DNA from: an uncultured Candidatus Rokubacteria bacterium
GTDB taxonomy: Bacteria; Methylomirabilota; Methylomirabilia; Rokubacteriales; DASRDR01
Direction of reading: 5' to 3'
NCBI GenBank assembly: GCA_963805625.1
Contig: CAWDVE010000021.1
Coordinates: 32,001 to 96,000, forward strand
DNA length: 64,000 bases
Shown here: positions 53,117 through 64,000 of the stretch, in pieces
Numbering within the stretch: position 1 is the stretch's first letter
Layout: the number at the start of each line of letters is the position of its first letter
Notes under the pieces: model-generated
The model's input: the letters and a program-made list of their open reading frames with translations, nothing else
What the model was told of the DNA's origin: nothing
The model's database searches: none
Program-made: the position numbers and the translations under genes

Positions 53117-53416
53117 TCAGGCGAGATCCCGATCAAGGCGGAGGAGGACCTCCAGGAGAACCTTACGGCGGTCGCGAGGTGCGTCGAGTGTCCCCGCCCG
53201 CCGCCCGATCTGGTTACCGGCGGCGTCGACCGCAGGACCGAGGCCGGCCTCGACCATCCGGCCCGCCAGCCACTGGCGCGCCGACCGATCCTCGTCGGAG
53301 AAGGCGCGACGCGTGTACGGACGGTCGGGGCGCGTGAAGGTCTCGAGCGCGCGGAGATCACCGGCGAGCCGCTCGGCCGACGGCTGAGGCAGCCCGGCCG
53401 AGAGGGCGTCACTCAC
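53117..53416 (-). pseudogene. Internally deleted M20 Zn-dependent hydrolase (allantoate amidohydrolase/carbamoylase-like)
   Basis: YTRRAFSDED..DAAGNQIGRRAG N-terminus fused to a C-terminal-like helix VLLEVLLRLD; catalytic core (GSHxD) missing. Confidence 0.7.
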
Positions 53417-53450: not shown

Positions 53451-54338
53451 TCACGTGGGCAGGACGGCCGACGCGAGCGCGCCCGCAATCCCCGCCAGCG
53501 CTCGGCCCGCTGGCGTCTCCCCGTGGTCGAGGACGAAGGGCCGCCCGCGGTCGGCGGCCGCGGCGAGCCGCGGGTCGAACGGGACTCGCCCGAGGAAGGG
53601 CAGGCCGTGCTGGGCGGCCGTCGCCTCTCCGCCCGGGCCCTCGAAGAGCGGGCCAACGGTGCCGCACGTCGGGCACACGTAGCCGGCCATGTTCTCGACC
53701 AGCCCGAGGAGCCGCGCCCCGCGCTCGCGGGCGAGAGTCATGGCGCGGCGCACGACCAGGTGGGAGACGCCGGAGGGAATCGTGACCACGACCGCGCCGG
53801 TCAGCCCGGGCAGGAGGTCGAGGAGCGTCGGCAACCGATCGGCGCCCGGCGGGAGGTCGATGAGGAGAACGTCGAGCGTGCCCCAGGCGGTGTCGGCCAG
53901 GAACTCACGGAGGGCCGTGCCCTCCATGGTCCCACGCCAGGTGTGGGCCTCGGCCTGGGTGGGAGCGTCCCACTCGACGGGCGCGTCGTCGCCGGGCAGG
54001 AGCAGATCCATCGACAGGACGCGGATCCCCTCGGCGGAGACGGCCGGCTGCACGCCATCCCGCTCGACCCGGAGCGTCTGACCGCGCACGCCCAGCATCT
54101 TGCCGATGGACGGGCCGTTGAGGTCCGCGTCGAGGACGCCCACCCGGAGCCCGCGCCCCACGAGCGCCCCCGCGAGGTTCGCGGTGACCGAGCTCTTGCC
54201 GACGCCGCCCTTGCCGGAGACCACTGCCACACTGGCGCGGATCGGGGCCATCCGGGCGGCGAGCCGTGCCTGCTGCGCGACGACCTGCTCGCGGATGTTC
54301 GAGCCGCCGTCGCCGGCGATGTCGCGATAGCCCTTCAC
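53451..54338 (-). CDS. mrp: Mrp/NBP35/ApbC family Fe-S carrier ATPase
   Basis: SGKGGVGKS, DADLNGPS, IDLPPG, VENM, CPTC, VPFDP. Confidence 0.92.
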   Translation of the reverse strand: MKGYRDIAGDGGSNIREQVVAQQARLAARMAPIRASVAVVSGKGGVGKSSVTANLAGALVGRGLRVGVLDADLNGPSIGKMLGVRGQTLRVERDGVQPAVSAEGIRVLSMDLLLPGDDAPVEWDAPTQAEAHTWRGTMEGTALREFLADTAWGTLDVLLIDLPPGADRLPTLLDLLPGLTGAVVVTIPSGVSHLVVRRAMTLARERGARLLGLVENMAGYVCPTCGTVGPLFEGPGGEATAAQHGLPFLGRVPFDPRLAAAADRGRPFVLDHGETPAGRALAGIAGALASAVLPT

Positions 54339-55351
54339 ACCCCGCTCCCCTCGTCGCTCGTGTCGAGCGGAGCCGCGGCGGGGTCCCGGAGGTGCGCCCG
54401 GAACCGGCACATGAGGTCCTCGCCGAGGAAATCCCCGGACTGGCCGTGACGCTCCGTCTCGAAGTAGTGCCGGATGCGATCCAGGCGCTCCTGCGCCTCG
54501 GGGTTCAGGCTCACCGTGCGGATCTCGGCCTTCGCCGCGTCGAAGGCATCGAACGTGAGTTCGGTGAAGCCGAGCTCGCGGATGCGCTTGACCGCCTTCA
54601 TCATCGCCTGGTTGCGGAACCGGGTGAGGAGCGGCGAGGTGATCTCGGCCACACCCATCCGCCGCGCGCGCCGCTCGGCCGCCTTCCGGATGCCCTCACG
54701 GACGAACTCCGGCGCCGTCTGGAGCCGCGCCCAGGCCTCGGGCGTCCAGCGCACGGGCGTCTCCGGTGCCGCCTGCCAGAGCCGCTCGACGACCTCCACG
54801 GTGACCCGGTCGAGGCCCGCGCGCCGTGCTTCGATCTCGACGTCCCGCTGGAAGAGGCGCAGCACGAAGTCCGCCATCATGGCCGGGGCCTTCCCGAGAC
54901 GCGCGACGAGCCGGGCCTCCGCCTCCGGCGTCCAGAGGAGCGGCACCGCTGCCGTTTCGGTCTCGGCCTCCGCCTCGGCTTCCCGGATCAAGGCCGGCGT
55001 TACCGCGACCGCGCCGTGCTCGGCCGCCAGCTCCTCGCAGATCCGACGCGTCATCGGCCGCATGAACGGCGGGACGGCGTCGAGCAGCGCCAGCGCCTCG
55101 GGGGTCCACGGCGCGGCCGACTGCGGAACCTGGTAGGCGCCGCTCGCGGCCAGACCCATCATCTCGCCCTTGTAGCGGGTCATGAGCTCGGGTGTGATCA
55201 CGCGGACGCCCTCGGCGCGCGCCCGCTTCTCGGCCAGCCGCCGGACCATGCCGCGGAGGAACACCGGAGCGCGCGCGACCCGCGCCTCGGCCTCCGGCGT
55301 CCAGCGCACCTCGCCGGGTTGGGGGTCCGGCGGCGATCCGGCCGCGCTCAC
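54335..55351 (-). CDS. Protein with four tandem PCP_red (BchB/ChlB C-terminal-like) modules
   Basis: Four WTPEA...P.F.R...E..A...G...IT repeats followed by a helical C-terminal domain. Confidence 0.8.
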   Translation of the reverse strand: MSAAGSPPDPQPGEVRWTPEAEARVARAPVFLRGMVRRLAEKRARAEGVRVITPELMTRYKGEMMGLAASGAYQVPQSAAPWTPEALALLDAVPPFMRPMTRRICEELAAEHGAVAVTPALIREAEAEAETETAAVPLLWTPEAEARLVARLGKAPAMMADFVLRLFQRDVEIEARRAGLDRVTVEVVERLWQAAPETPVRWTPEAWARLQTAPEFVREGIRKAAERRARRMGVAEITSPLLTRFRNQAMMKAVKRIRELGFTELTFDAFDAAKAEIRTVSLNPEAQERLDRIRHYFETERHGQSGDFLGEDLMCRFRAHLRDPAAAPLDTSDEGSGV

Positions 55352-55773
55352 GGCTCGCGGCTCCACGCCGCCCGCGCGAGCATCACGGCCGTGACGACCG
55401 TGAGGAGGCAGAAGGCCCAGGCGCCGGCCCGCAGGGACACGTCGAGCCCGAGGACGGAGACGGTCTCGGCGCGGGGCATCCGGGCGATCCGCGCCACCTC
55501 GATCGCGCGGAGCGCGACGAGAAGCGTCAGGACGCGCGCGAAGTCCCGCCGCGAGAGCACCCAGCGGTCGAACCACGCGCGCTCCTTGACGAGGAGCCAG
55601 GGGAAGACGACGACGAACAGGGCGCCCACGACGAACCAGGCCGTGCCCCCACGCTCCATGCCCCGCGGGCCGAGTCCACCGCTGGCCAGGACGAGCCCCC
55701 CGAGCCAGTAGACGACGCCGTAGGCGACGTAGGTCCAGGCAGCCTGACGGTATCGCGCCTCCCGGGTGTCCAT
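55348..55773 (-). CDS. Hypothetical 4-TM membrane protein
   Basis: Four hydrophobic segments; GTGA overlap with the next gene. Confidence 0.75.
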   Translation of the reverse strand: MDTREARYRQAAWTYVAYGVVYWLGGLVLASGGLGPRGMERGGTAWFVVGALFVVVFPWLLVKERAWFDRWVLSRRDFARVLTLLVALRAIEVARIARMPRAETVSVLGLDVSLRAGAWAFCLLTVVTAVMLARAAWSREP

Positions 55774-55780
55774 CGCCGGC

Positions 55781-57163
55781 TCACCCGTCCCCGGCCACGG
55801 GAGGCCGGCCGGAGGCCGGCGTGAACGGTCGCCCCGGCGAGATGCCCCAGCGGCTCCGCACCTCGGCGAGGAGCGCCGGCGTCACCGTCGCCTGCCCCTG
55901 GCCGCGCGCGTAGGCCTCGACCGCCTGGACCACCATCGCCCGGGCGAACCCGGGGATGGCGTCGAGCCGGGCGCGGGCCGCCGGCTCCCACCCGAGCGCG
56001 AAGCGCACCTCGAGCCCGAACGTCTGCTCGACCCCGAGCCGGATCAGCTCGCCGCCGTGGGCACCCGGCTGGTAGCCGCAGGCCGGGTCCTCGGCGAGGT
56101 AGTCGCCGTAGGTCGCGTAGGCGCGGCAGCGGCAGCCGCCGCAGATCTCGCGGAACTCGCAGGCGCCGCACCGGCCGCCGAGCGGGCCCGTGCGAAGATC
56201 CGTGAAGACCCGGGACCGCTCCCACAGCTCGGCGAAGCCAGTCTCGCGGAGGTTCCCCGCCGCCACCGGCATGTAGGGACACGGCGTCACGTCACCCGTC
56301 GGCGTGATGCGGCAGTAGTACTTGCCGGCGGGACAGGAGCCGTGGGCGTAGTTGGCGAGGAGCGGGGAGCGGGGGTCCAGCTCGTAGAGTACCCGCCGGA
56401 AGTGCGGCGCGCACTTGGCCCGGATCAGGAGGCCGCCGGCCCGGCCGATGGGCACGCTCCACGGATCCTCGCGCCGCTCGAGGACGGAACCCGGCGCGGC
56501 CCCGTCGGGCGCGCCGCCCGCCCCCTGGGCGCGCGCCAGGTACGTGAGGATCTCCTCGTACTGCGCCGGCGTGATGTCGGTGAGGCCCTCGCCCCGGCCC
56601 GTCCGCACCAGGAAGAAGAAGTTGAGCACGCGTGCCCCGAGCTCCCGCGAGAGGTCGATCATCGCGGGGATCTCCCCGACGTTCCAGTCGGTGACGCTCA
56701 TGTGAAGCGAGAAATCGATCCCCTCCGCCCGGAGCGCCTCCGTCGCCCGGACGGCGGCGCGCCAGGCCCCGGGCAGGTGCCGGAACTCGTCGTGGCGCCC
56801 CGGATCGGTCGAGTCGAGGGAGAGCGAGGCGCCCTGGACCCCGTGCGTCTTCATGAGGCGCGCTTGCTTCTGCCGGAGGAGGACCCCGTTGGTCCCGAGC
56901 ACGACCGTGAAGCCGTGCTCGCGCCCCTCGGCGGCGAGCTCGAAGATGTCCGGGCGGAGGAGCGGCTCTCCGCCCGTTAGGATGAGGAACGTTCCGGGAT
57001 TCACCCGGGCGATGTCGGCCATCACCCGCCGGCACTCGTCCGTCGAGAGCTCGCCCGCCGCGGAGGCGCCCGGCGCCGCGCTGATGTAGCAGTGGGCGCA
57101 GAAGAGGTTGCAGCGCTGGGTGAGGTTCCACGAAACCGCGTACGCCTTGTAGGTCATCGCCAT
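55781..57163 (-). CDS. Radical SAM/SPASM enzyme (NirJ/AhbC-D-like) with C-terminal PCP_red module
   Basis: WNLTQRCNLFCAHCY, TGGEPLLR; SPASM CPAG..GDVTPC..CGAC..CGGCRC..EDPAC; tail WEPAARARLDAIPGFAR. Confidence 0.88.
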   Translation of the reverse strand: MAMTYKAYAVSWNLTQRCNLFCAHCYISAAPGASAAGELSTDECRRVMADIARVNPGTFLILTGGEPLLRPDIFELAAEGREHGFTVVLGTNGVLLRQKQARLMKTHGVQGASLSLDSTDPGRHDEFRHLPGAWRAAVRATEALRAEGIDFSLHMSVTDWNVGEIPAMIDLSRELGARVLNFFFLVRTGRGEGLTDITPAQYEEILTYLARAQGAGGAPDGAAPGSVLERREDPWSVPIGRAGGLLIRAKCAPHFRRVLYELDPRSPLLANYAHGSCPAGKYYCRITPTGDVTPCPYMPVAAGNLRETGFAELWERSRVFTDLRTGPLGGRCGACEFREICGGCRCRAYATYGDYLAEDPACGYQPGAHGGELIRLGVEQTFGLEVRFALGWEPAARARLDAIPGFARAMVVQAVEAYARGQGQATVTPALLAEVRSRWGISPGRPFTPASGRPPVAGDG

Positions 57164-57196
57164 AGCCGAGCTCACTCTACAACCCGTCTTGCAGGA

Positions 57197-57625
57197 TCAG
57201 TGGCGCGATGCCGCCGGTCTCCACCACGGCTGGAAGGTCGCCTCGAATTCAGCGCTCGCCCATTCAAGGCCGTCCACCCGCACAATGTACACGCCGCGCT
57301 TGAAGGCGAGCAGAGGCTCCCGTTCACCCTGAACGGTATTGACTCGGTCGCCTCGCAGGTAGACCCATAGCCGTGAGCTCCATGGCGCGAGTAGGTGGGG
57401 CTCGGCGTAGTCAAGGATGGTCCCCTCTTCGCCCCATGCTCGAACCCGTAGTGGTGGGCCCAGGGTCTCGAGGACTTCTTCGGATGTCATACCGGGACGG
57501 ACAGATCGGATGGAGGCGGCGCTGACGCCCGGTGCGACCCGCCAGTACGGTCCGACGACGCTCACCGTGAGCCCGCCTGCCACCAGGAGCGCCGTCGTCA
57601 TCGGTCGCCATCCCGCGAGGCTCAT
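57197..57625 (-). CDS. SmpA/OmlA (BamE)-like domain membrane protein
   Basis: TM helix then IRSVRPGMTSEEVLETLGPP. Confidence 0.55.
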   Translation of the reverse strand: MSLAGWRPMTTALLVAGGLTVSVVGPYWRVAPGVSAASIRSVRPGMTSEEVLETLGPPLRVRAWGEEGTILDYAEPHLLAPWSSRLWVYLRGDRVNTVQGEREPLLAFKRGVYIVRVDGLEWASAEFEATFQPWWRPAASRH

Positions 57626-57714
57626 CGGGACCAAGCCTCCCGCCAGTCTGTGAGGCCTGGGCCTCTCCCTCGCGTCCAGGCTGTTGAGCGGCTGCCCACA
57701 ACTCTCCGAAAACG

Positions 57715-59616
57715 CTAGCTCTGGGGCTTGTTCTTGATGTAGCCGGCGATGACCTCGTTCATCGTGACCCGCGCGTGGCCGATCCCCTCCTCGCACAGGG
57801 CGAGGTCGATGAAGCCCACCTGCTTCTCGCGCGCCACCTTCTCGATCGCCTCGCGCGTCATGTCCCGCATGAAGCCCGCCGGCACGCGGTTCAGCCGCGC
57901 GACCGCGTCGTCGGTCCAGGTGAAGGCGCCGTTCGGGTCGGTCACGTCCTTGAGCGTCGCCTGGGCGAACCGCGTGTTGGCGATGAGCGTGTCCCAGCCG
58001 TCGCCGAGCTTGTCGCGTCCGACGGTCTCCTCGATCAGCGGGAACGCGATCTCCTTGGTGATCACGGGAATCTTGCGCGTCCGCGCGTACTTCTCGATCC
58101 GCGCCTTCGCGCGCCGCCGGAGGTAGGCGTCGGTGACCTCGCGGAGGCCCTCCCGCGCGTCGTTGGCCCAGCGGACCGTCACGCCGGGCATGACCTCCTC
58201 CTCGGCGATCCCCCCCTCGGCCGTGGCGATCTGCTCCACCGCCCGGCGGTCGATGTGCGTGAACCCCTCCGGGCCGCCCGAGCAGACCGGGCACTTCACG
58301 ACGGGGTTCGGGCCCTTCACGACGTAGCCGCAGACCGAGCAGATCGCCGTCACCGCGGCGTCCTCCGCCCGGAGCTTCGCGACCGCCAGGTCCTCGGCCA
58401 GGATCTGCATCTTCTCCGCCATCCGGCCCGGCATGAAGATCGCCATCGCCTCGTCGATCACCTTGGAGGTGATGACCGTGTGCCCCTGCTCGATCGCGTA
58501 CCGGAGGAGCGCCGTCCGGGCCACCCCCGCCACCTGCTCGGGGACCCGCTTCATCCGCTCCCGGGCCTCGTCTGTCCAGGCGATGATCTCTTCGGCCTTA
58601 ACGTCGAGGGGCGGATAGAACTTGCCCGCGACCAGGAGCACGTTGCACGGCGCCAGGCGGAGGAGGTTCTCCGTGTTGGACCCGAGGTCCGCCTCACGCT
58701 CGTCCGAGTGCACGCCGATGCGGCCCAGGATCAGGAGCCAGGGCTGCTCCTTCCGGCAGAACTGCAGCACCTTCTCGAAGCACTTGCCGTCGAGCAGCGT
58801 GATCGCGAGATCGACCCCCTCGTCGGCCGCGAGCTTCCGGCCAATCTCGAGGTGCGACTGGTAGATCTTGGCCAGCCCGGTGTCGATGATCTCCTCGTGG
58901 AGCTGCTCCTGCTCCTTGAAGCGGAAGACCTTCGAGGCCTGCTCGGTCAGCACGCCGACGATCCCGTTGAACATGGCATAGTGGAGGTAGGGATCGTAGA
59001 CGGCGACCGCATGGACCGGCCGGTGGAGGGCCTTGCCGAGCGCGATCCCGACCTTGAGCCCGTGGAAGGACTGGGGGCTTCCGTCGAGCCCGACGACGAT
59101 CGCGCCCTGCTGCGCTTCGGGCGGCTCGGGGCTCCGGATCACCAGCGTGTCGACCGGCGTCTTGCGCACAAACCGCTCGGTCACGGAGCCGAGCTGGCTG
59201 TCGCGGACCGCGCCAAGCCCGAGGGCGCCCATGATCACGAGGTCGTAGTCCTTGCCCTGGACGTCCTCGATCAAGGCCTTGTAGTGCTTGCCGTCCATCA
59301 TCCGCGGCTCGAACGGGAGCCCGGCGGCTTCCGTCTTCTTTCGCATCACCTCGAGGTACGAGTCGGAGACCAGCTGGAGGCCCATCGCGATCAGCGAGTC
59401 GTGGATCTTCCGCTGGCGCTCGAGCTCGTGCTCGTCCCGGTACTCCTCGGGCAGCGTGTACTCCATCTGCTTGAAGCGGTAGTCGTGAAGCCGCGCCGCG
59501 TAGACGTGGCAGCCGGTCAAGGTCGAGCCGAAGGCTCGCCCGAGCTCCACGGCCAGGTCGATGGCGCGGTTGGAGTAGTCCGAGTTGTCGACCGGCACGT
59601 AGATCTTCCGGAACAT
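57715..59616 (-). CDS. Tandem universal stress protein fused to a rubredoxin-like site and three PCP_red modules
   Basis: KIYVPVDNS..GALGLG..GSVTE (USP1); IVVGLDGS..GRIG..GSNTE (USP2); CSVC..CPVC; WTDEA, WANDA and WTDDA modules. Confidence 0.88.
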   Translation of the reverse strand: MFRKIYVPVDNSDYSNRAIDLAVELGRAFGSTLTGCHVYAARLHDYRFKQMEYTLPEEYRDEHELERQRKIHDSLIAMGLQLVSDSYLEVMRKKTEAAGLPFEPRMMDGKHYKALIEDVQGKDYDLVIMGALGLGAVRDSQLGSVTERFVRKTPVDTLVIRSPEPPEAQQGAIVVGLDGSPQSFHGLKVGIALGKALHRPVHAVAVYDPYLHYAMFNGIVGVLTEQASKVFRFKEQEQLHEEIIDTGLAKIYQSHLEIGRKLAADEGVDLAITLLDGKCFEKVLQFCRKEQPWLLILGRIGVHSDEREADLGSNTENLLRLAPCNVLLVAGKFYPPLDVKAEEIIAWTDEARERMKRVPEQVAGVARTALLRYAIEQGHTVITSKVIDEAMAIFMPGRMAEKMQILAEDLAVAKLRAEDAAVTAICSVCGYVVKGPNPVVKCPVCSGGPEGFTHIDRRAVEQIATAEGGIAEEEVMPGVTVRWANDAREGLREVTDAYLRRRAKARIEKYARTRKIPVITKEIAFPLIEETVGRDKLGDGWDTLIANTRFAQATLKDVTDPNGAFTWTDDAVARLNRVPAGFMRDMTREAIEKVAREKQVGFIDLALCEEGIGHARVTMNEVIAGYIKNKPQS

Positions 59617-59780: not shown

Positions 59781-60167
59781 TCACGGCCCGCCTGGCCCAG
59801 GCTGTCCGGAGGCATCGGTCGGGTCCACCAGGTGGTCGAGCGCCAGCCAGAGCGCCTTGCTGTACCGGAACGACCAGAGCGGGAAGAAGACCGTGAAGGC
59901 GCCCCAGACGAGCACCTGCCACCGGGGGGACGGCGCGAGCCACGCCTCGAGCAGGAAGTAGCCGGCCACCGCGAGCCCCACCGTCAGGCCGTAGTTGATG
60001 TAGATCGCGCCGATGAAGTACCCGGTCTCGCGCTCGAAGAGGAGCCCACACGCCGGGCAGCGTGGCAGCATGCGAACGAGCCCGGTGAAGAGGGGCGCCC
60101 CGCCGCAGCGCGGGCACCGGAGCCCGACCGCTCGCCGGAGCGCCTGAGATACGCGGGCGCGGTCCAC
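59781..60167 (-). CDS. DUF983 family protein
   Basis: RCPRCG..LF..CPACG..ERETGYFIGA plus two TM helices. Confidence 0.85.
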   Translation of the reverse strand: MDRARVSQALRRAVGLRCPRCGGAPLFTGLVRMLPRCPACGLLFERETGYFIGAIYINYGLTVGLAVAGYFLLEAWLAPSPRWQVLVWGAFTVFFPLWSFRYSKALWLALDHLVDPTDASGQPGPGGP

Positions 60168-60189
60168 CTGGCGCCTCCGTCACACCCGC

Positions 60190-60603
60190 TCATCCATGAT
60201 AGAGCATCCAGTACACCACTACGCCCGTCACCGATACGTAGAGCCAGATCGGGAACGTGACCCGGGCCAGCCGCGCGTGGCGCGCGAACTGGGACCGGAG
60301 CGCCCGATAGAGGGTCGTCGAGACCAGCGGGACGATCGCGACGGCCAGCACGGTGTGGGTCAGCAGGATCAAGAGGTAGAGCGTCCGAAGCCCGCCCTCG
60401 CCGCCGTAGGGACGCGAGCCCACCTGGGCGTGATAGACAAGGTACGAGCAGAGGAACAGCACCGAGAGACCGACGGCCGTCAGCATGCAGGCCCGGTGCA
60501 CGGCGATGCGCCGCTGCCGGATGGCCACGAAGCCGACGAGCATCGCCACCGCCGCCGACGCGTTCAGCACCGCGTTGATGGTCGGCAGGATGGTGAGACT
60601 CAC
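60190..60603 (-). CDS. DUF420 (CtaM/YozB-like) membrane protein
   Basis: LPTINAVLN, HRACM, FLCSYLVYH, IWLYVSVTGVVVY. Confidence 0.9.
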   Translation of the reverse strand: MSLTILPTINAVLNASAAVAMLVGFVAIRQRRIAVHRACMLTAVGLSVLFLCSYLVYHAQVGSRPYGGEGGLRTLYLLILLTHTVLAVAIVPLVSTTLYRALRSQFARHARLARVTFPIWLYVSVTGVVVYWMLYHG

Positions 60604-60634
60604 CGGCCGGTCAGCCTCGGGGTCACGACCCGCG

Positions 60635-60961
60635 TCAATGCTGCGGCGCCTCGACCTTCTTCGAGTCGGCCGTCTGGTGCGGCGCGTGGAGCGAGTCGGG
60701 CAGCAGCACCATCACCAGGAGCGCGCCGATCACCACCGGCGTGAGGGCGATGTAGCCCAGCGTCTTCACCTCGAGGCGGAGATGCATGAAGTAGAGCGCC
60801 ACCATCGCCGCCTTCGTGGAGGCCAGGATCACCAGCAACACGCCGACCGCCATCTTGGCGATGGGCAGGTAGATGACCGCGATCTCGATCACCGTGAGCA
60901 CCGCCAGGTACCAGAAGATGGCCATGTAGCTCGGCCCGTGCTTCGCGTGAGTGTCCGCCAT
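60635..60961 (-). CDS. ctaF: Cytochrome c oxidase subunit IV (caa3 CtaF-type)
   Basis: LTVIE, KAAMVALYFMHL. Confidence 0.85.
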   Translation of the reverse strand: MADTHAKHGPSYMAIFWYLAVLTVIEIAVIYLPIAKMAVGVLLVILASTKAAMVALYFMHLRLEVKTLGYIALTPVVIGALLVMVLLPDSLHAPHQTADSKKVEAPQH

Positions 60962-60986
60962 CGTCGCCTCCGTCCCGCTCGCGCGC

Positions 60987-61610
60987 CTACAGGAGGTAAA
61001 TGAACGTGAAGACCATGATCCAGACCAGGTCGACGAAGTGCCAGTAGAGCCCGGCGATCTCCGAGACCATGTAGTTGTACTGCATGTCCTTGACTCGGCT
61101 GATCACCTTGTAGATCGAGAGGAGGTAGATCACGCCGCCGGTCACGTGCAGCCCATGGAAGCCCGTGATGATGAAGAAGCTCGCCCCGAAGAGCGTGGAC
61201 CCCCAGGGGTTCCCGAAGATCTTGAGCCCGCGGTGAATCAGGTGTGTCCACTCGTAGGCCTGGAGCCCGACGAAGATCGCCCCGCCCAGCGCCGTGAGCA
61301 GGACGAACATCTTGGCGCGCGCCAGGTTCGAGCTCTTGAGATTCTCGAGCGCCTTCACCATGGTGACGCTCGAGCAGATCAGGAGGAACGTCATCAGGGC
61401 GGTGAGCTGGATGCCGAGCACCTGGGCTGGGTGCGGCCAGTCGACGCTGCCGGCTCGCAGGGCACCGTAGGAGGCCAGGAGCACGCCGAATCCCACGGCG
61501 TCGCCGGCCAGGAAGATCCACATTCCGAGCTTGCCCCAGCTCTCAGGCGTCAGGGGCGACTCGACCGGCTCGACGGCCGGATGGTGCAGCGCGGTAGCTG
61601 CGTCGCTCAC
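60987..61610 (-). CDS. ctaE: Heme-copper oxidase subunit III (second copy)
   Basis: KLGMWIFLAGD, TGFHGLHV, GLYWHFVDLVW. Confidence 0.9.
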   Translation of the reverse strand: MSDAATALHHPAVEPVESPLTPESWGKLGMWIFLAGDAVGFGVLLASYGALRAGSVDWPHPAQVLGIQLTALMTFLLICSSVTMVKALENLKSSNLARAKMFVLLTALGGAIFVGLQAYEWTHLIHRGLKIFGNPWGSTLFGASFFIITGFHGLHVTGGVIYLLSIYKVISRVKDMQYNYMVSEIAGLYWHFVDLVWIMVFTFIYLL

Positions 61611-61632
61611 GATCCGCTCTCCTTCCCTGCGG

Positions 61633-62322
61633 TCATACGAGGTAGACGAGCACGTACAAGACCGGCCAGAGCGCCACGACGAAGTGCCAGTAGATCGCGC
61701 AACACTCGAGCGCGACGTGCCGGTCTTGCGTGAACCGGCCCCGCCGGGCGAGCCAGAGCACCCCGCCCAGCCAGGCGGCCGCACCGAGCACGTGGACGGC
61801 GTGCACGCCGATCAGCGTGTAGAACGTGGCGCCATAGATGCCTGACGACACCCGGAGCCCGAAGTGCACCATCCGCGTCCACTCGACGCCCTGGATGACC
61901 AGGAAGAGGGCGCCGAGCCCCCACGTCCAGGCGAGCCAGCGCACGAGCCCCGTCCGGTCGTCGGCGCGGACGGCCCGGAGCGCCCGCACGAGTGTCCAGC
62001 TCGACGCGAGCAGGACGAGGGTGTTCACGGCCGTGAGCCCGACGGGGAGCCGTGGCTGGCCCGGCGGCGGCCATACCGCCGCTCCCAGGCGGAGCTGGAG
62101 GAAGGCGATCACCAGGCCACCGAAGAACATCGCCTCCCCGCCGAGGAGCATCAGCATGCCCAGGCGAGCGTTCGAGAGCGGCAGTCCCTCCGAGCTCGCG
62201 TGAGGCTCGCCATCCCCGTTGCCGTCATGGGGTCCCGGCGGAGCGGGCGGCCGCCCCCCGCGGTCCGGCACCCGATCGCGGGGCGCCTCGTGGGTCCGGA
62301 TCTCGACGTCGAGCACGGGCAC
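61633..62322 (-). CDS. ctaE: Heme-copper oxidase subunit III (first copy)
   Basis: EAMFFGGL, FYTLIGVHAVHV, YWHFV. Confidence 0.9.
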   Translation of the reverse strand: MPVLDVEIRTHEAPRDRVPDRGGRPPAPPGPHDGNGDGEPHASSEGLPLSNARLGMLMLLGGEAMFFGGLVIAFLQLRLGAAVWPPPGQPRLPVGLTAVNTLVLLASSWTLVRALRAVRADDRTGLVRWLAWTWGLGALFLVIQGVEWTRMVHFGLRVSSGIYGATFYTLIGVHAVHVLGAAAWLGGVLWLARRGRFTQDRHVALECCAIYWHFVVALWPVLYVLVYLV

Positions 62323-62330
62323 GAGCGAGC

Positions 62331-62471
62331 TCAGTTCCGCAGCCAGGCCACGGCGGCCGACGCGACCATGAGGAGAACGATCCAGGCCACGAGCACCACC
62401 GCCGTCCGGCGGTTTCGACTCGGAAGGCTGCGCGTGACCGTCGACCCGGCATCCGGCCTCGAGGCGGACAT
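62331..62471 (-). CDS. Small single-TM protein (46 aa) within the oxidase operon
   Basis: MSASRPDAGSTVTRSLPSRNRRTAVVLVAWIVLLMVASAAVAWLRN*; fills the ctaB-ctaE gap; below the ORF-track cutoff. Confidence 0.6.
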   Translation of the reverse strand: MSASRPDAGSTVTRSLPSRNRRTAVVLVAWIVLLMVASAAVAWLRN

Positions 62472-62495
62472 CGCGGGCGCGCGCTCGGGCACGGG

Positions 62496-63406
62496 CTAGC
62501 CGACCTTGTCCAGGGCCATGAGGACCAGCAGGAGCGGCAGATAGATGACGGAGGCGATGACCACCCGCCGGGCGGCCGGCGCCGAGGGACGGAGGGCCTG
62601 CGCCGTGCCGAAGGCCAGAAACACCGCGCCCAGGACAAGAGCTCCGAAGAAGTAGACGCCCCCCGTGAGCCCGACGAGGGTCGGCAGGAGACCGGCGGCG
62701 TGCAGGGCGAGACAGCCGGTCACGATCTGCCGCTCCGTGCTCCCGCCGTCCGGGTCGACGACCGGCAGGACGCGGATGCCGGCGCGCGCGTAGTCCTCGC
62801 GATAGAGCCGGGCGATGGCGAGGGTGTGGGGGAGCTGCCAGAGGAACAGGATGGCGAAGAGCACCCCGGCCCCCACGCCCAGCTCCCCGCGGGCCGCCAC
62901 CCAGCCCGCCACCGGCGGGAGGGCGCCGGGGATCGCGCCCAGCACCGTGCAGAGCGGGCTCACCTGCTTGAGCGGCGTGTAGACGCCGAGGTAGAGCACC
63001 GAGGTAACCGCGGTGATCGCGGCGGCGGCGGGGCCCGCCACCACCACGAGGTACGCGAGGCCGCCGACCGTCACCAGGCTACCGAAGGCGGCCGCCTCGA
63101 TCGGCTGGAGACGCCCGTCCGGGAGGGGCCGGGCACGGGTCCGCAGCATCTGCGCGTCCACGTCCCGCTCGAGGAACTGGTTGAGCGCCAGCGTCCCCCC
63201 GCCGCCAGGGCCGTCCCCACCAGGACCTGCACCAGCCGCAGGAGGTCGAGGTCCCCAGGCGCGCCGAGGTAGTATCCGACGAGCGTCGTCAGCACCACCA
63301 TCAGGACGACCCGGGGCTTCGCGAGGGCGAGAAAGTCCGCCGCCCGGCGGCGGGTCCCGGCCAGCGGGAGCGCTCCCTCCCGCACGATCGCCGTCGGTGA
63401 GGTCAC
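62496..63406 (-). CDS. ctaB: Protoheme IX farnesyltransferase (heme O synthase), frameshifted at 63195-63200
   Basis: LAKPRVVLMV..TALAAG in one frame; TLALNQFLERDVDAQMLRTRARPLP..WQLPH in another; junction is a G6 run where G7 restores the frame. Confidence 0.88.
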
Positions 63407-64000
63407 GCCGCCACCTCCGTCCGCACCGCGGCCATCCGCGGCGCGGCACGCACGCCGGCGCCGAGGGCACGGCGACGGCCCAGCTGGAGCGCGAGGGCCA
63501 CCGCGCTCCCGAGGACGAGCGCTCCCACAGCCCGGTGCAGGACCGGCAGGGCGACGACGGCGACCTCCCCCCCCGGCACCCCGAGACTCGTGAAGCGAAC
63601 GGCGTAGGCGCCGAGACCGAGGAGCAGCTGGACCAGCACCAGGACCTTCACGGCACGCGCCCACCAGGCGAGGATCGGATCCTCCCGGGCGCCGCGGAGG
63701 ACGGCCAGGGCCGTCCCGACCAGGACGCCGGTCGCCACGATCGCCCCCGCCACGTGCCACCACACGGCCGTCCCGTGCGTGGTGAAGGCCCCGAGCACCA
63801 CCTGCCCGTAGACCACGGCCACCGCGAGGCTACCAAGCGACGCCAGTTGCGGGGCCCGCGCGGGCACGCTGGACGGAGCTTGCCATCCGCGGCCCGTGAC
63901 CACGGCGATCCCCACGAGGAGGGCGAAGAACAGCTGCGCCAGGCAGCCGTGGATGAGGGCTAGGGCGTCCCGCAGGAGCACGACACGCAGCCCCCCGATG
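63403..64000 (-). CDS. ctaA: Heme A synthase (COX15/CtaA), 3' part
   Basis: HGCLAQLFF, QVVLGA..H, QLLLG..H; directly upstream of ctaB. Confidence 0.85.
   Translation of the reverse strand, partial: IGGLRVVLLRDALALIHGCLAQLFFALLVGIAVVTGRGWQAPSSVPARAPQLASLGSLAVAVVYGQVVLGAFTTHGTAVWWHVAGAIVATGVLVGTALAVLRGAREDPILAWWARAVKVLVLVQLLLGLGAYAVRFTSLGVPGGEVAVVALPVLHRAVGALVLGSAVALALQLGRRRALGAGVRAAPRMAAVRTEVAA

Follow-up and report, generated by a model that had tools for sequence, protein, structure and literature searches.

Introduction

The families OR-N1 and OR-N2 of the cytochrome bd superfamily were defined by Murali et al. (10.1101/2021.01.16.426971). An oxidase of this type has been proposed as the terminal oxidase of Nitrospirales (PMC12342949) and is TO_1 of Manganitrophus (10.1101/2021.11.15.468770). 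A bd-like cluster is also held by anammox Planctomycetota and by Nitrospinota (PMC6606698). A canonical haem-copper oxidase is absent from Nitrospira (PMC6606698), and the O2-reducing enzyme of this genus and its cofactors are treated as an open question in the available sections of two papers (PMC6606698, PMC12342949). The passages of the OR-N literature that deal with the oxidase name no accessory or maturation genes. For other enzymes, HemW and NirJ exemplify the tailoring and delivery of tetrapyrroles (PMC10114771). Here we describe a gene cassette in a 64,000-nucleotide stretch of DNA, called the window below, from an uncultured Candidatus Rokubacteria bacterium (GCA_963805625.1, contig CAWDVE010000021.1, positions 32,001 to 96,000; genome G000, 99.91% complete). 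The cassette encodes a tandem USP fusion, an AhbD/NirJ2-like radical SAM enzyme, a small membrane protein and an Mrp-type ATPase, together with repeated PCP_red (PF08369) modules. It very probably serves an oxidase module of the OR-N type, composed of a bd-like subunit, a membrane cytochrome c and a cytochrome c-EB_dh protein, and we lean towards the view that its contribution is to make or load haem. Each part belongs to a known family; neither the combination of the parts nor its link with OR-N oxidases appears in the papers that our searches reached, and we regard the system as real, conserved and undescribed. Our literature search found no paper on the cassette, although the genes may be mentioned in the OR-N operon tables that accompany Murali et al. 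and Kop et al. as supplements.

Results

Gene layout and co-occurrence with a bd-like oxidase

The cassette and its proposed client consist of the following genes.

57715..59616, minus strand: tandem USP fusion, 633 amino acids, arranged USP-USP-PCP-rubredoxin-like-PCP-PCP
55781..57163, minus strand: AhbD/NirJ2-like radical SAM/SPASM enzyme, 460 amino acids, with CX3CX2C, C251/C277/C295, CX2CX5CX2CX17C and a C-terminal PCP_red module
55348..55773, minus strand: membrane protein, 141 amino acids, about four helices, no Pfam family
54335..55351, minus strand: four-module PCP_red protein with a conserved helical tail of ~90 amino acids, accessory
53451..54338, minus strand: dedicated Mrp/NBP35-family ATPase, 295 amino acids, no DUF59 domain, CPTC present
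G000:C21:102801-104678, outside the window at the operon head: bd-like oxidase subunit

The initial annotation, made from the sequence of the window, had described the genes as co-directional, several of them with overlapping stop and start codons. This was correct, as all cassette genes lie on the minus strand and GTGA overlaps couple the membrane gene to the four-module gene and the four-module gene to the Mrp gene. From its head the operon runs through the genes for the bd-like subunit, a dihaem cytochrome c, cytochrome c-EB_dh, a carboxypeptidase-regulatory-like protein, coxB and coxA; downstream of coxA follow cox15, ctaB, coxC, coxC, coxD, DUF420 and DUF983, and then the cassette. The bd-like end lies upstream, beyond the window edge. 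This order was kept in 18 loci of the Rokubacteria type as far as their flanks reach, and in the remaining 61 loci (Nitrospirota or unnamed) the four-module gene was present with no adjoining cox gene. The four-helix membrane gene was kept between the radical SAM and Mrp genes in Methylomirabilota.

We analyzed 101 Methylomirabilota and 101 Nitrospirota genomes for the co-occurrence of these genes; the genomes are drafts, and absence means not found. Alignments A3/A4 of the study leave out three genome pairs with an in-range stop and two further rows. In Methylomirabilota the USP fusion and the bd-like gene were each present in 64 genomes, with both in 59, neither in 32 and 5 + 5 discordant. 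The radical SAM and Mrp genes, counted at strict thresholds, were present in 59 and 57 genomes, respectively, and in none of the 32 double negatives. A PF08369 search of the 37 USP-negative genomes gave a match in exactly the 5 with a bd-like gene and in 0/32 of the others. A-type COX1 was found in 96 of the 101 genomes (63/64 USP-positive and 33/37 USP-negative), and eight genomes retained a close orthologue of the operon COX1 (74-80% identity) with neither the cassette nor the bd-like gene. In Nitrospirota, USP was found in 36 genomes and the bd-like gene in 34, all 34 of them within the 36; COX1 was found in 32, overlapping with USP in 7, and 29 of the 36 USP-positive genomes had no A-type COX1.

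Gene order pointed the same way. Three genomes (G049, G052 and G064) showed the order USP, radical SAM, membrane protein, Mrp, ZnPCP (a zinc-ribbon protein with a PCP_red module), bd-like subunit and cytochromes, with no cox gene, and five others (G014, G026, G136, G142 and G168) showed different direct arrangements of cassette and bd-like genes with no cox gene between them. Among 23 metagenome loci (at least 6 kb, with a USP <70% identical), a bd-like or cytochrome c-EB_dh gene was present in 16, cox genes only in one and neither in six. USP+PCP_red clusters in the Atlas were commonest in Pseudomonadota, Acidobacteriota and Nitrospirota, and named cassette members include Manganitrophus and Mariprofundaceae. 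The cassette of G014 (L121-L122) lies between two operons that, from their motifs, we take to encode a nitrate reductase/nitrite oxidoreductase-type molybdoenzyme and an arsenite-oxidase-like enzyme. The initial annotation had named the adjacent aa3 oxidase as the client. Synteny with the cox genes held in Rokubacteriales, but in other lineages the cassette sits directly beside bd-like genes, and the proposed client had to be given up: the cassette tracks the bd-like oxidase at the operon head, outside the window.

The bd-like oxidase subunit

Judged from its sequence, the bd-like subunit fits OR-N1/N2 of the cytochrome bd superfamily. It covers only positions 2-240 of 418 of PF01654 (CydA), the quinol-site half being absent, and its sequence contains no CxxCH. 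Residues H80, H194 and H250 were invariant in 32 aligned rows. The subunit was 42-50% identical to three long copies in the Nitrospira genome G001. Crude hydropathy gave 12 segments, as against 14 transmembrane helices in OR-N1/N2, and a quick tree of the oxidase left the N1 and N2 forks unseparated. In four loci (L272, L273, L278 and L288) a long USP fusion is followed by two short bd-like genes that belong to another clade, so the cassette may have clients in more than one OR-N subfamily.

PCP_red modules

The repeated module had been counted three, one and four times in three proteins and likened to PCP_red. Both points were confirmed with the PF08369 profile (cut-off 32.5 bits), which matched three stretches of the USP fusion (81 bits), one of the radical SAM protein (44.9 bits) and four of the protein at 54335-55351 (148.1 bits). 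Scored singly in the genome, the eight modules gave E-values from 2.2e-14 to 3.0e-4; six of them exceeded the cut-off alone, and the other two scored 25.9 and 24.1 bits.

58447..58578, minus strand: USP fusion module 1, 40.0 bits
58048..58170, minus strand: USP fusion module 2, divergent, 25.9 bits, E 9e-5
57790..57918, minus strand: USP fusion module 3, 41.6 bits
55856..55990, minus strand: radical SAM module, 49.5 bits
55172-55303, 54977-55108, 54782-54934 and 54620-54748, minus strand: modules of the four-module protein

W1, A5 and A28 were invariant across the eight modules and two outside copies, and P13 and E25 were present in at least 9 of these 10. The top Foldseek matches of the modules were 2KRU, 2L09 and 2YNM chain D, all with probability 1.0 and a root mean square deviation of 1.3-2.3 Å over one module (E 0.014-0.47). 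The AlphaFold2 model of the four-module protein has three helices per module, and at a predicted TM score of 0.45 the packing of its modules is not confident. A ninth module was found elsewhere in the genome, in the CxxC..CxxC zinc-ribbon protein ZnPCP (G000:C16:173298). Four Nitrospirota genomes have 12 modules each. Besides the USP fusion, radical SAM enzyme and four-module protein, the carriers there are a small protein and a zinc-ribbon protein encoded beside Mrp. In Nitrospira G001 a small protein with two PCP modules is placed in a duplicated bd-like cluster.

The initial annotation had held the system to be non-photosynthetic, and the genome agrees. The Oxidored_nitro family (PF00148; BchN/BchB/NifD/K-type) gave no match in the whole G000 genome while the control matched in 3/14, and the window ATPase scored 18 bits against the BchL-type Fe protein model, whose cut-off is 345. 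A role in dark-operative protochlorophyllide reductase (DPOR) or chlorophyll synthesis was rejected, because this nearly complete genome has no Oxidored_nitro gene.

In five cassette-negative Nitrospirota genomes PCP_red forms the N-terminal part of a fusion with a ChdC/chlorite-dismutase-family domain, which is a third tetrapyrrole setting for the module.

L319:1456-2481: PCP_red-ChdC fusion, genome G146
L320:1456-2490: PCP_red-ChdC fusion, genome G152
L321:1456-2469: PCP_red-ChdC fusion, genome G157
L323:1459-2502: PCP_red-ChdC fusion, genome G139
L324: PCP_red-ChdC fusion, genome G132

The ChdC-family domain of the fusion is 34% identical to the G001 copy and has the His of the 'DEH' motif replaced; the fusion was the sole ChdC-family member in 3/3 genomes checked. 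PCP_red may act as a tether, in the manner of the docking tag suggested in the initial annotation, or may hold a tetrapyrrole; that it binds Mrp as BchB would bind BchL is hypothetical. The available part of PMC12022308 contained nothing on PCP_red contacting BchL.

The tandem USP fusion

PF00582 matched two stretches of the USP fusion with 132 bits. Both domains have a G-x2-G-x9/10-GS nucleotide loop, at position 130 (x9) and position 298 (x10), and G-x2-G-x9-G(S/T) is what we take to be the motif of ATP-binding-type USPs. Each domain carries a pair of histidines in a helical insert, His44/His72 in the first and His212/His240 in the second, both pairs spaced 28 residues, and a further histidine is His303. 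Among distant representatives the four paired residues were conserved in 102/105, 107/109, 124/127 and 124/128 sequences, respectively (about 97-98%). The predicted structure (predicted local distance difference test 88.6) matched the fold of tandem ATP-binding USPs with an E-value of 1e-16, the closest structures being TTHA0350 and Rv2623. The tail contains one feature besides the modules.

58282..58341, minus strand: rubredoxin-like CxxC-x13-CPxC knuckle, residues 426-445, PF21349

This knuckle is lost in several relatives. Overall the USP protein is unusually conserved, with 95-99% identity among the closest relatives as compared to 85-98% for COX1.

USP fusions elsewhere have up to six modules, or have the USP behind a split-barrel-like domain. 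In G125 and G116 the USP is fused to the last module and tail of the four-module protein. USP and radical SAM genes are adjacent in most loci, G051 and G019 being exceptions in which the radical SAM gene is located away from the USP; in G136 and G185 the USP has no module, yet the radical SAM gene adjoins it. Such fusions, which join the parts, and the co-occurrence in two phyla uphold the proposal that the genes act together and are conserved across genomes. A complex prediction for the USP (residues 1-400) and the radical SAM enzyme (residues 1-445), to which haem and three 4Fe-4S clusters were added, gave no verdict at a score of 0.00 and weighs neither way.

Two further neighbours of the USP gene were observed. 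The split-barrel-like domain (weak PF01243) is fused ahead of the USP in three representatives (P0133, P0176 and P0199) whereas in G185 and G170 it is encoded on its own, behind the radical SAM gene (L130:11560-12291). In one lineage the gene behind the USP is GNAT-like (L279:4175-5017, L282, L284, L276 and L277).

The radical SAM enzyme and the haem-synthesis context

The top NCBIfam matches of the radical SAM enzyme were AhbD and NirJ2. It carries CX3CX2C at residues 18-25 and CX2CX5CX2CX17C at residues 332-362, the latter being the AhbD auxiliary-cluster motif (PMC10114771), which was present in 51/51 orthologues. The cut-offs of NirJ, NirJ2 and TIGR04053 (515, 500 and 395) were missed with 189.5, 297.8 and 255 bits, respectively, and peptide and PQQ/mycofactocin models gave at most 145 bits. 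The C-terminal module was kept in 13/13 orthologues shown in full. In G142 and G122 the enzyme is fused to the whole four-module protein, and in G122 hemY lies directly behind this fusion. The tetrapyrrole handling suggested earlier is probably right, given that AhbD and NirJ2 are the nearest families and that the AhbD motif is universal among the orthologues.

We searched five genomes for each set of haem genes. HemE was found in 5/5, HemH in 4/5 and ChdC-family genes in 5/5; AhbA/B (PF17805) was found in 0/5, NirDL/GH-type genes in none of the five, and neither HemF nor an above-cut-off (true) HemN was found in them. In G000 a gene that we take from its motif to be hemY follows hemE. Since the coproporphyrin-route genes were found and AhbA/B, HemF and HemN were not, coproheme is the likely substrate pool. 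The siroheme route and haem d1 were rejected because AhbA/B and NirDL/GH-type genes were found in 0/5 genomes.

Several genes near radical SAM enzymes were noted in passing. Behind the radical SAM gene, Nitrospira has a gene for a DUF4149/CopD-like membrane protein; in G049 such a gene stands ahead of hemE-hemH (L112:14648-15157; L161:9351-9755). On contig C14 of G000, two TIGR04053 radical SAM enzymes, one of them with a fused DUF59/SufT, flank a divergent haem-copper oxidase operon (L157:10159-11577, L158:8726-9901), a second case of an AhbD-like enzyme by a terminal oxidase. In many, not all, Nitrospira loci the USP is preceded by two genes, one ubiE-like and the other for a B12 radical SAM protein that resembles slr0320 but scores below the cut-off (L133:13120-14892). 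This pair was rejected as a linked component since it is missing in other Nitrospira and in Methylomirabilota.

The Mrp-type ATPase and the four-module protein

The ATPase scored 241 bits against PF10609 (cut-off 27.1) and missed the equivalog cut-offs of ApbC (160 vs 348) and MrpORP (241 vs 450). As had been annotated, it is of the Mrp/ApbC type with CPTC: it has the deviant Walker A GKGGVGKS and CPTC (ENM..CxxC), and SGKGGVGKS is invariant across orthologues. A separate housekeeping Mrp paralogue on contig C10 is 40% identical and has DUF59. A role as Fe-S carrier is weakened by the loss of CxxC, which the window copy keeps as CPTC, in 23 of 68 orthologue rows, mainly in a large neighbouring family (a few of the rows repeat one gene from overlapping loci). 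This loss suggests that the ATPase, and not cluster binding, is the constant part of the protein. The four-module protein had also been counted as a member of the system. It does carry four PF08369 modules; its last module and tail were found in 23/101 Methylomirabilota genomes as compared to 64 for the USP fusion.

Neighbouring genes

Two further features of the window adjoin the cassette genes.

57197..57625, minus strand: intervening open reading frame of 142 amino acids, weak BamE-like match
59781..64000, minus strand: cox context with DUF983, DUF420, coxD, coxC x2, ctaB and cox15, not the client

The intervening frame sits between the USP and radical SAM genes, is missing in the closest relative checked (L020, 124-bp gap), and has a G+C content at third codon positions of 0.73 as compared to 0.93-0.97 in the cassette genes. 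It is likely a recent insertion, and on account of its composition and its absence from that relative it was rejected as a member of the system. The ctaB gene (haem O synthase; window 62496-63400) is broken across two frames near 63200, and compared with L004, L020 and L212 one base is missing from the spacing between cox15 and ctaB; the break is likely a sequencing error. Directly after Mrp, window 53117-53413 holds a short truncated fragment that we take to resemble the N-terminus of a Zn-dependent amidohydrolase. The initial annotation had missed the rubredoxin-like knuckle, the four-helix membrane gene, the inserted frame and the ninth module in the zinc-ribbon protein.

Discussion

We propose that the cassette is a dedicated cytoplasmic kit that equips the OR-N module with haem. 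Cells would supply coproheme by the HemE-HemY-HemH route, and the AhbD-like radical SAM enzyme may convert coproheme or haem into the form needed by the oxidase module. The tandem USP could bind the tetrapyrrole (or a metal) by its paired histidines and pass it on under nucleotide control. Loading would be powered by the Mrp-type ATPase, which, where CxxC is kept, may also feed Fe-S clusters to the radical SAM enzyme. PCP_red modules would tether the partners or hold the tetrapyrrole, and the small membrane protein could bring the kit to its membrane client. Tentatively, and with considerable doubt, we extend this to the suggestion that the haem of OR-N oxidases, among them the enzyme suspected to be terminal oxidase in Nitrospira and Manganitrophus, is neither b nor d. 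The radical SAM enzyme would make this haem and the USP would deliver it as an ATP-gated bis-His chaperone, and PCP_red would be a general tetrapyrrole-enzyme module reused by DPOR, the kit and ChdC-family proteins. If OR-N oxidases need the cassette, the genes for co-expression are named and a haem product is predicted in Nitrospira. It would be the first non-photosynthetic function for PF08369 and would make a USP a cofactor carrier. The whole module occurs in many soil Rokubacteria (64/101 genomes of the phylum).

Several observations weigh against this reading. Its functional steps are deduced from co-occurrence, gene order, domain content and conserved residues. The genomes are related, so the counts overstate independence, and a co-transferred island would give co-occurrence without function. 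In Nitrospira the USP-radical SAM pair, the Mrp-ZnPCP pair and the four-module gene occupy separate sites, away from the oxidase. In G059, which is USP-positive, a bd-like gene was not found, and the USP-radical SAM pair adjoins what we take from its motifs to be an alternative-complex-III-like operon. Because the two cytochromes were always inherited along with the oxidase, the client proper may be any part of the module. The radical SAM enzyme missed the AhbD cut-off (TIGR04545, 500) with 298 bits, its orthologues scoring 294-314, and it scores equally for AhbD and NirJ2 (298 bits). ChdC-family genes are present in cassette-positive genomes, so ordinary haem b could be made without the cassette, and the need of OR-N for an enzyme of its own lacks an explanation. 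The loss of CxxC from many Mrp orthologues belongs here as well, and the four-module protein is accessory, not core. Finally, according to the available text of 10.1101/2021.01.16.426971, another member of the bd superfamily that was expressed in E. coli was functional with b haems alone.

Two alternatives fare best, and we consider both unlikely. In the first, the enzyme is a low-oxygen back-up for ordinary haem b, an O2-independent coproheme decarboxylase that replaces ChdC and is co-inherited with a haem-hungry module, not dedicated to it. The AhbD motif in all 51 orthologues, the coproporphyrin-route genes and the hemY adjacency in G122 are consistent with it, and an AhbD-like enzyme may replace ChdC anaerobically (PMC10114771). 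However, it leaves the USP, Mrp and PCP partners and the near one-to-one match with one oxidase family unexplained, the 32 double-negative genomes lack the enzyme though most have haem enzymes, and the enzyme scores below the AhbD cut-off. The second, to which we give about the same small weight, keeps the client and changes the chemistry to Cu or Fe insertion or a protein cross-link, in which the USP histidines would form a metal site and the ATPase would serve as the insertase. Protein modification is common among SPASM enzymes. The four near-invariant histidines, an ATPase motif kept while CxxC is lost, and the CopD/DUF4149-like gene behind the radical SAM gene in Nitrospira all suit this idea. 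A copper site has also been proposed for one Nitrospira bd-like copy (PMC6606698), and an HxH motif (550/552) is common to the bd-like protein here and the G001 copy with the proposed site. The nearest families of the radical SAM enzyme, on the other hand, are tetrapyrrole enzymes (298 bits) and not peptide maturases (<=145), and HxH is not kept in all cassette-linked oxidases.

Less credible still is a nucleotide or redox sensor that regulates the bd-like module instead of building it. The closest structures, tandem ATP-binding USPs, and the rubredoxin-like knuckle would suit a sensor, and UspA proteins are up under O2 limitation in N. marina, their identity with the cassette USP not being shown in the available text (10.1101/2020.07.02.185504). 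No part contains a DNA-binding or kinase domain, however, an Mrp ATPase and a radical SAM enzyme with three clusters speak of biosynthesis, and several relatives have lost the knuckle. That a PCP-tagged complex matures the aa3 cytochrome c oxidase next door is highly improbable: despite the cassette's place directly behind the cox operon in Rokubacteriales and the COX1 in 63/64 USP-positive Methylomirabilota, it is largely refuted by the Nitrospirota counts (29/36 without COX1), and COX1 also occurs in 33/37 USP-negative Methylomirabilota and CtaB and Cox15 are already in the operon.

A dedicated haem-making or haem-loading kit for OR-N, the reading we prefer, follows the same logic of enzyme-specific tetrapyrrole tailoring and delivery as the nir haem d1 genes, ctaAB and HemW. 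The radical SAM superfamily is the only overlap with these systems in genes, and to our knowledge USP and PCP_red have no place in them. The radical SAM enzyme shares CX3CX2C and the AhbD auxiliary motif with AhbD (TIGR04545) and NirJ2/NirJ/TIGR04053, but falls below every cut-off, has a C-terminal PCP_red and is tied to an oxidase family. The USP fusion has the fold and nucleotide loops of the tandem USPs TTHA0350, Rv2623 and UspE at ~20% identity, and differs in its helical inserts with paired histidines and its PCP and rubredoxin-like tail. The ATPase has the deviant Walker A of the Mrp/ApbC/NBP35 carriers (PF10609; MrpORP) and, in the window copy, ENM..CxxC; an N-terminal helix of its own replaces DUF59, and CxxC is dispensable in one large clade. 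The modules are of the same sequence family and the same predicted fold as the C-terminal domain of DPOR BchB/ChlB (2KRU, 2YNM) and the stand-alone Asr4154 (2L09), whereas here 8-12 copies per genome are spread over 4-5 unrelated proteins with no nitrogenase-like catalytic subunit. The proposed client, in turn, has in common with the OR-N family (TO_1, Nitrospira bd-like_2/3/4) that only the N-terminal part of CydA is shared and that cytochrome c and EB_dh are its partners.

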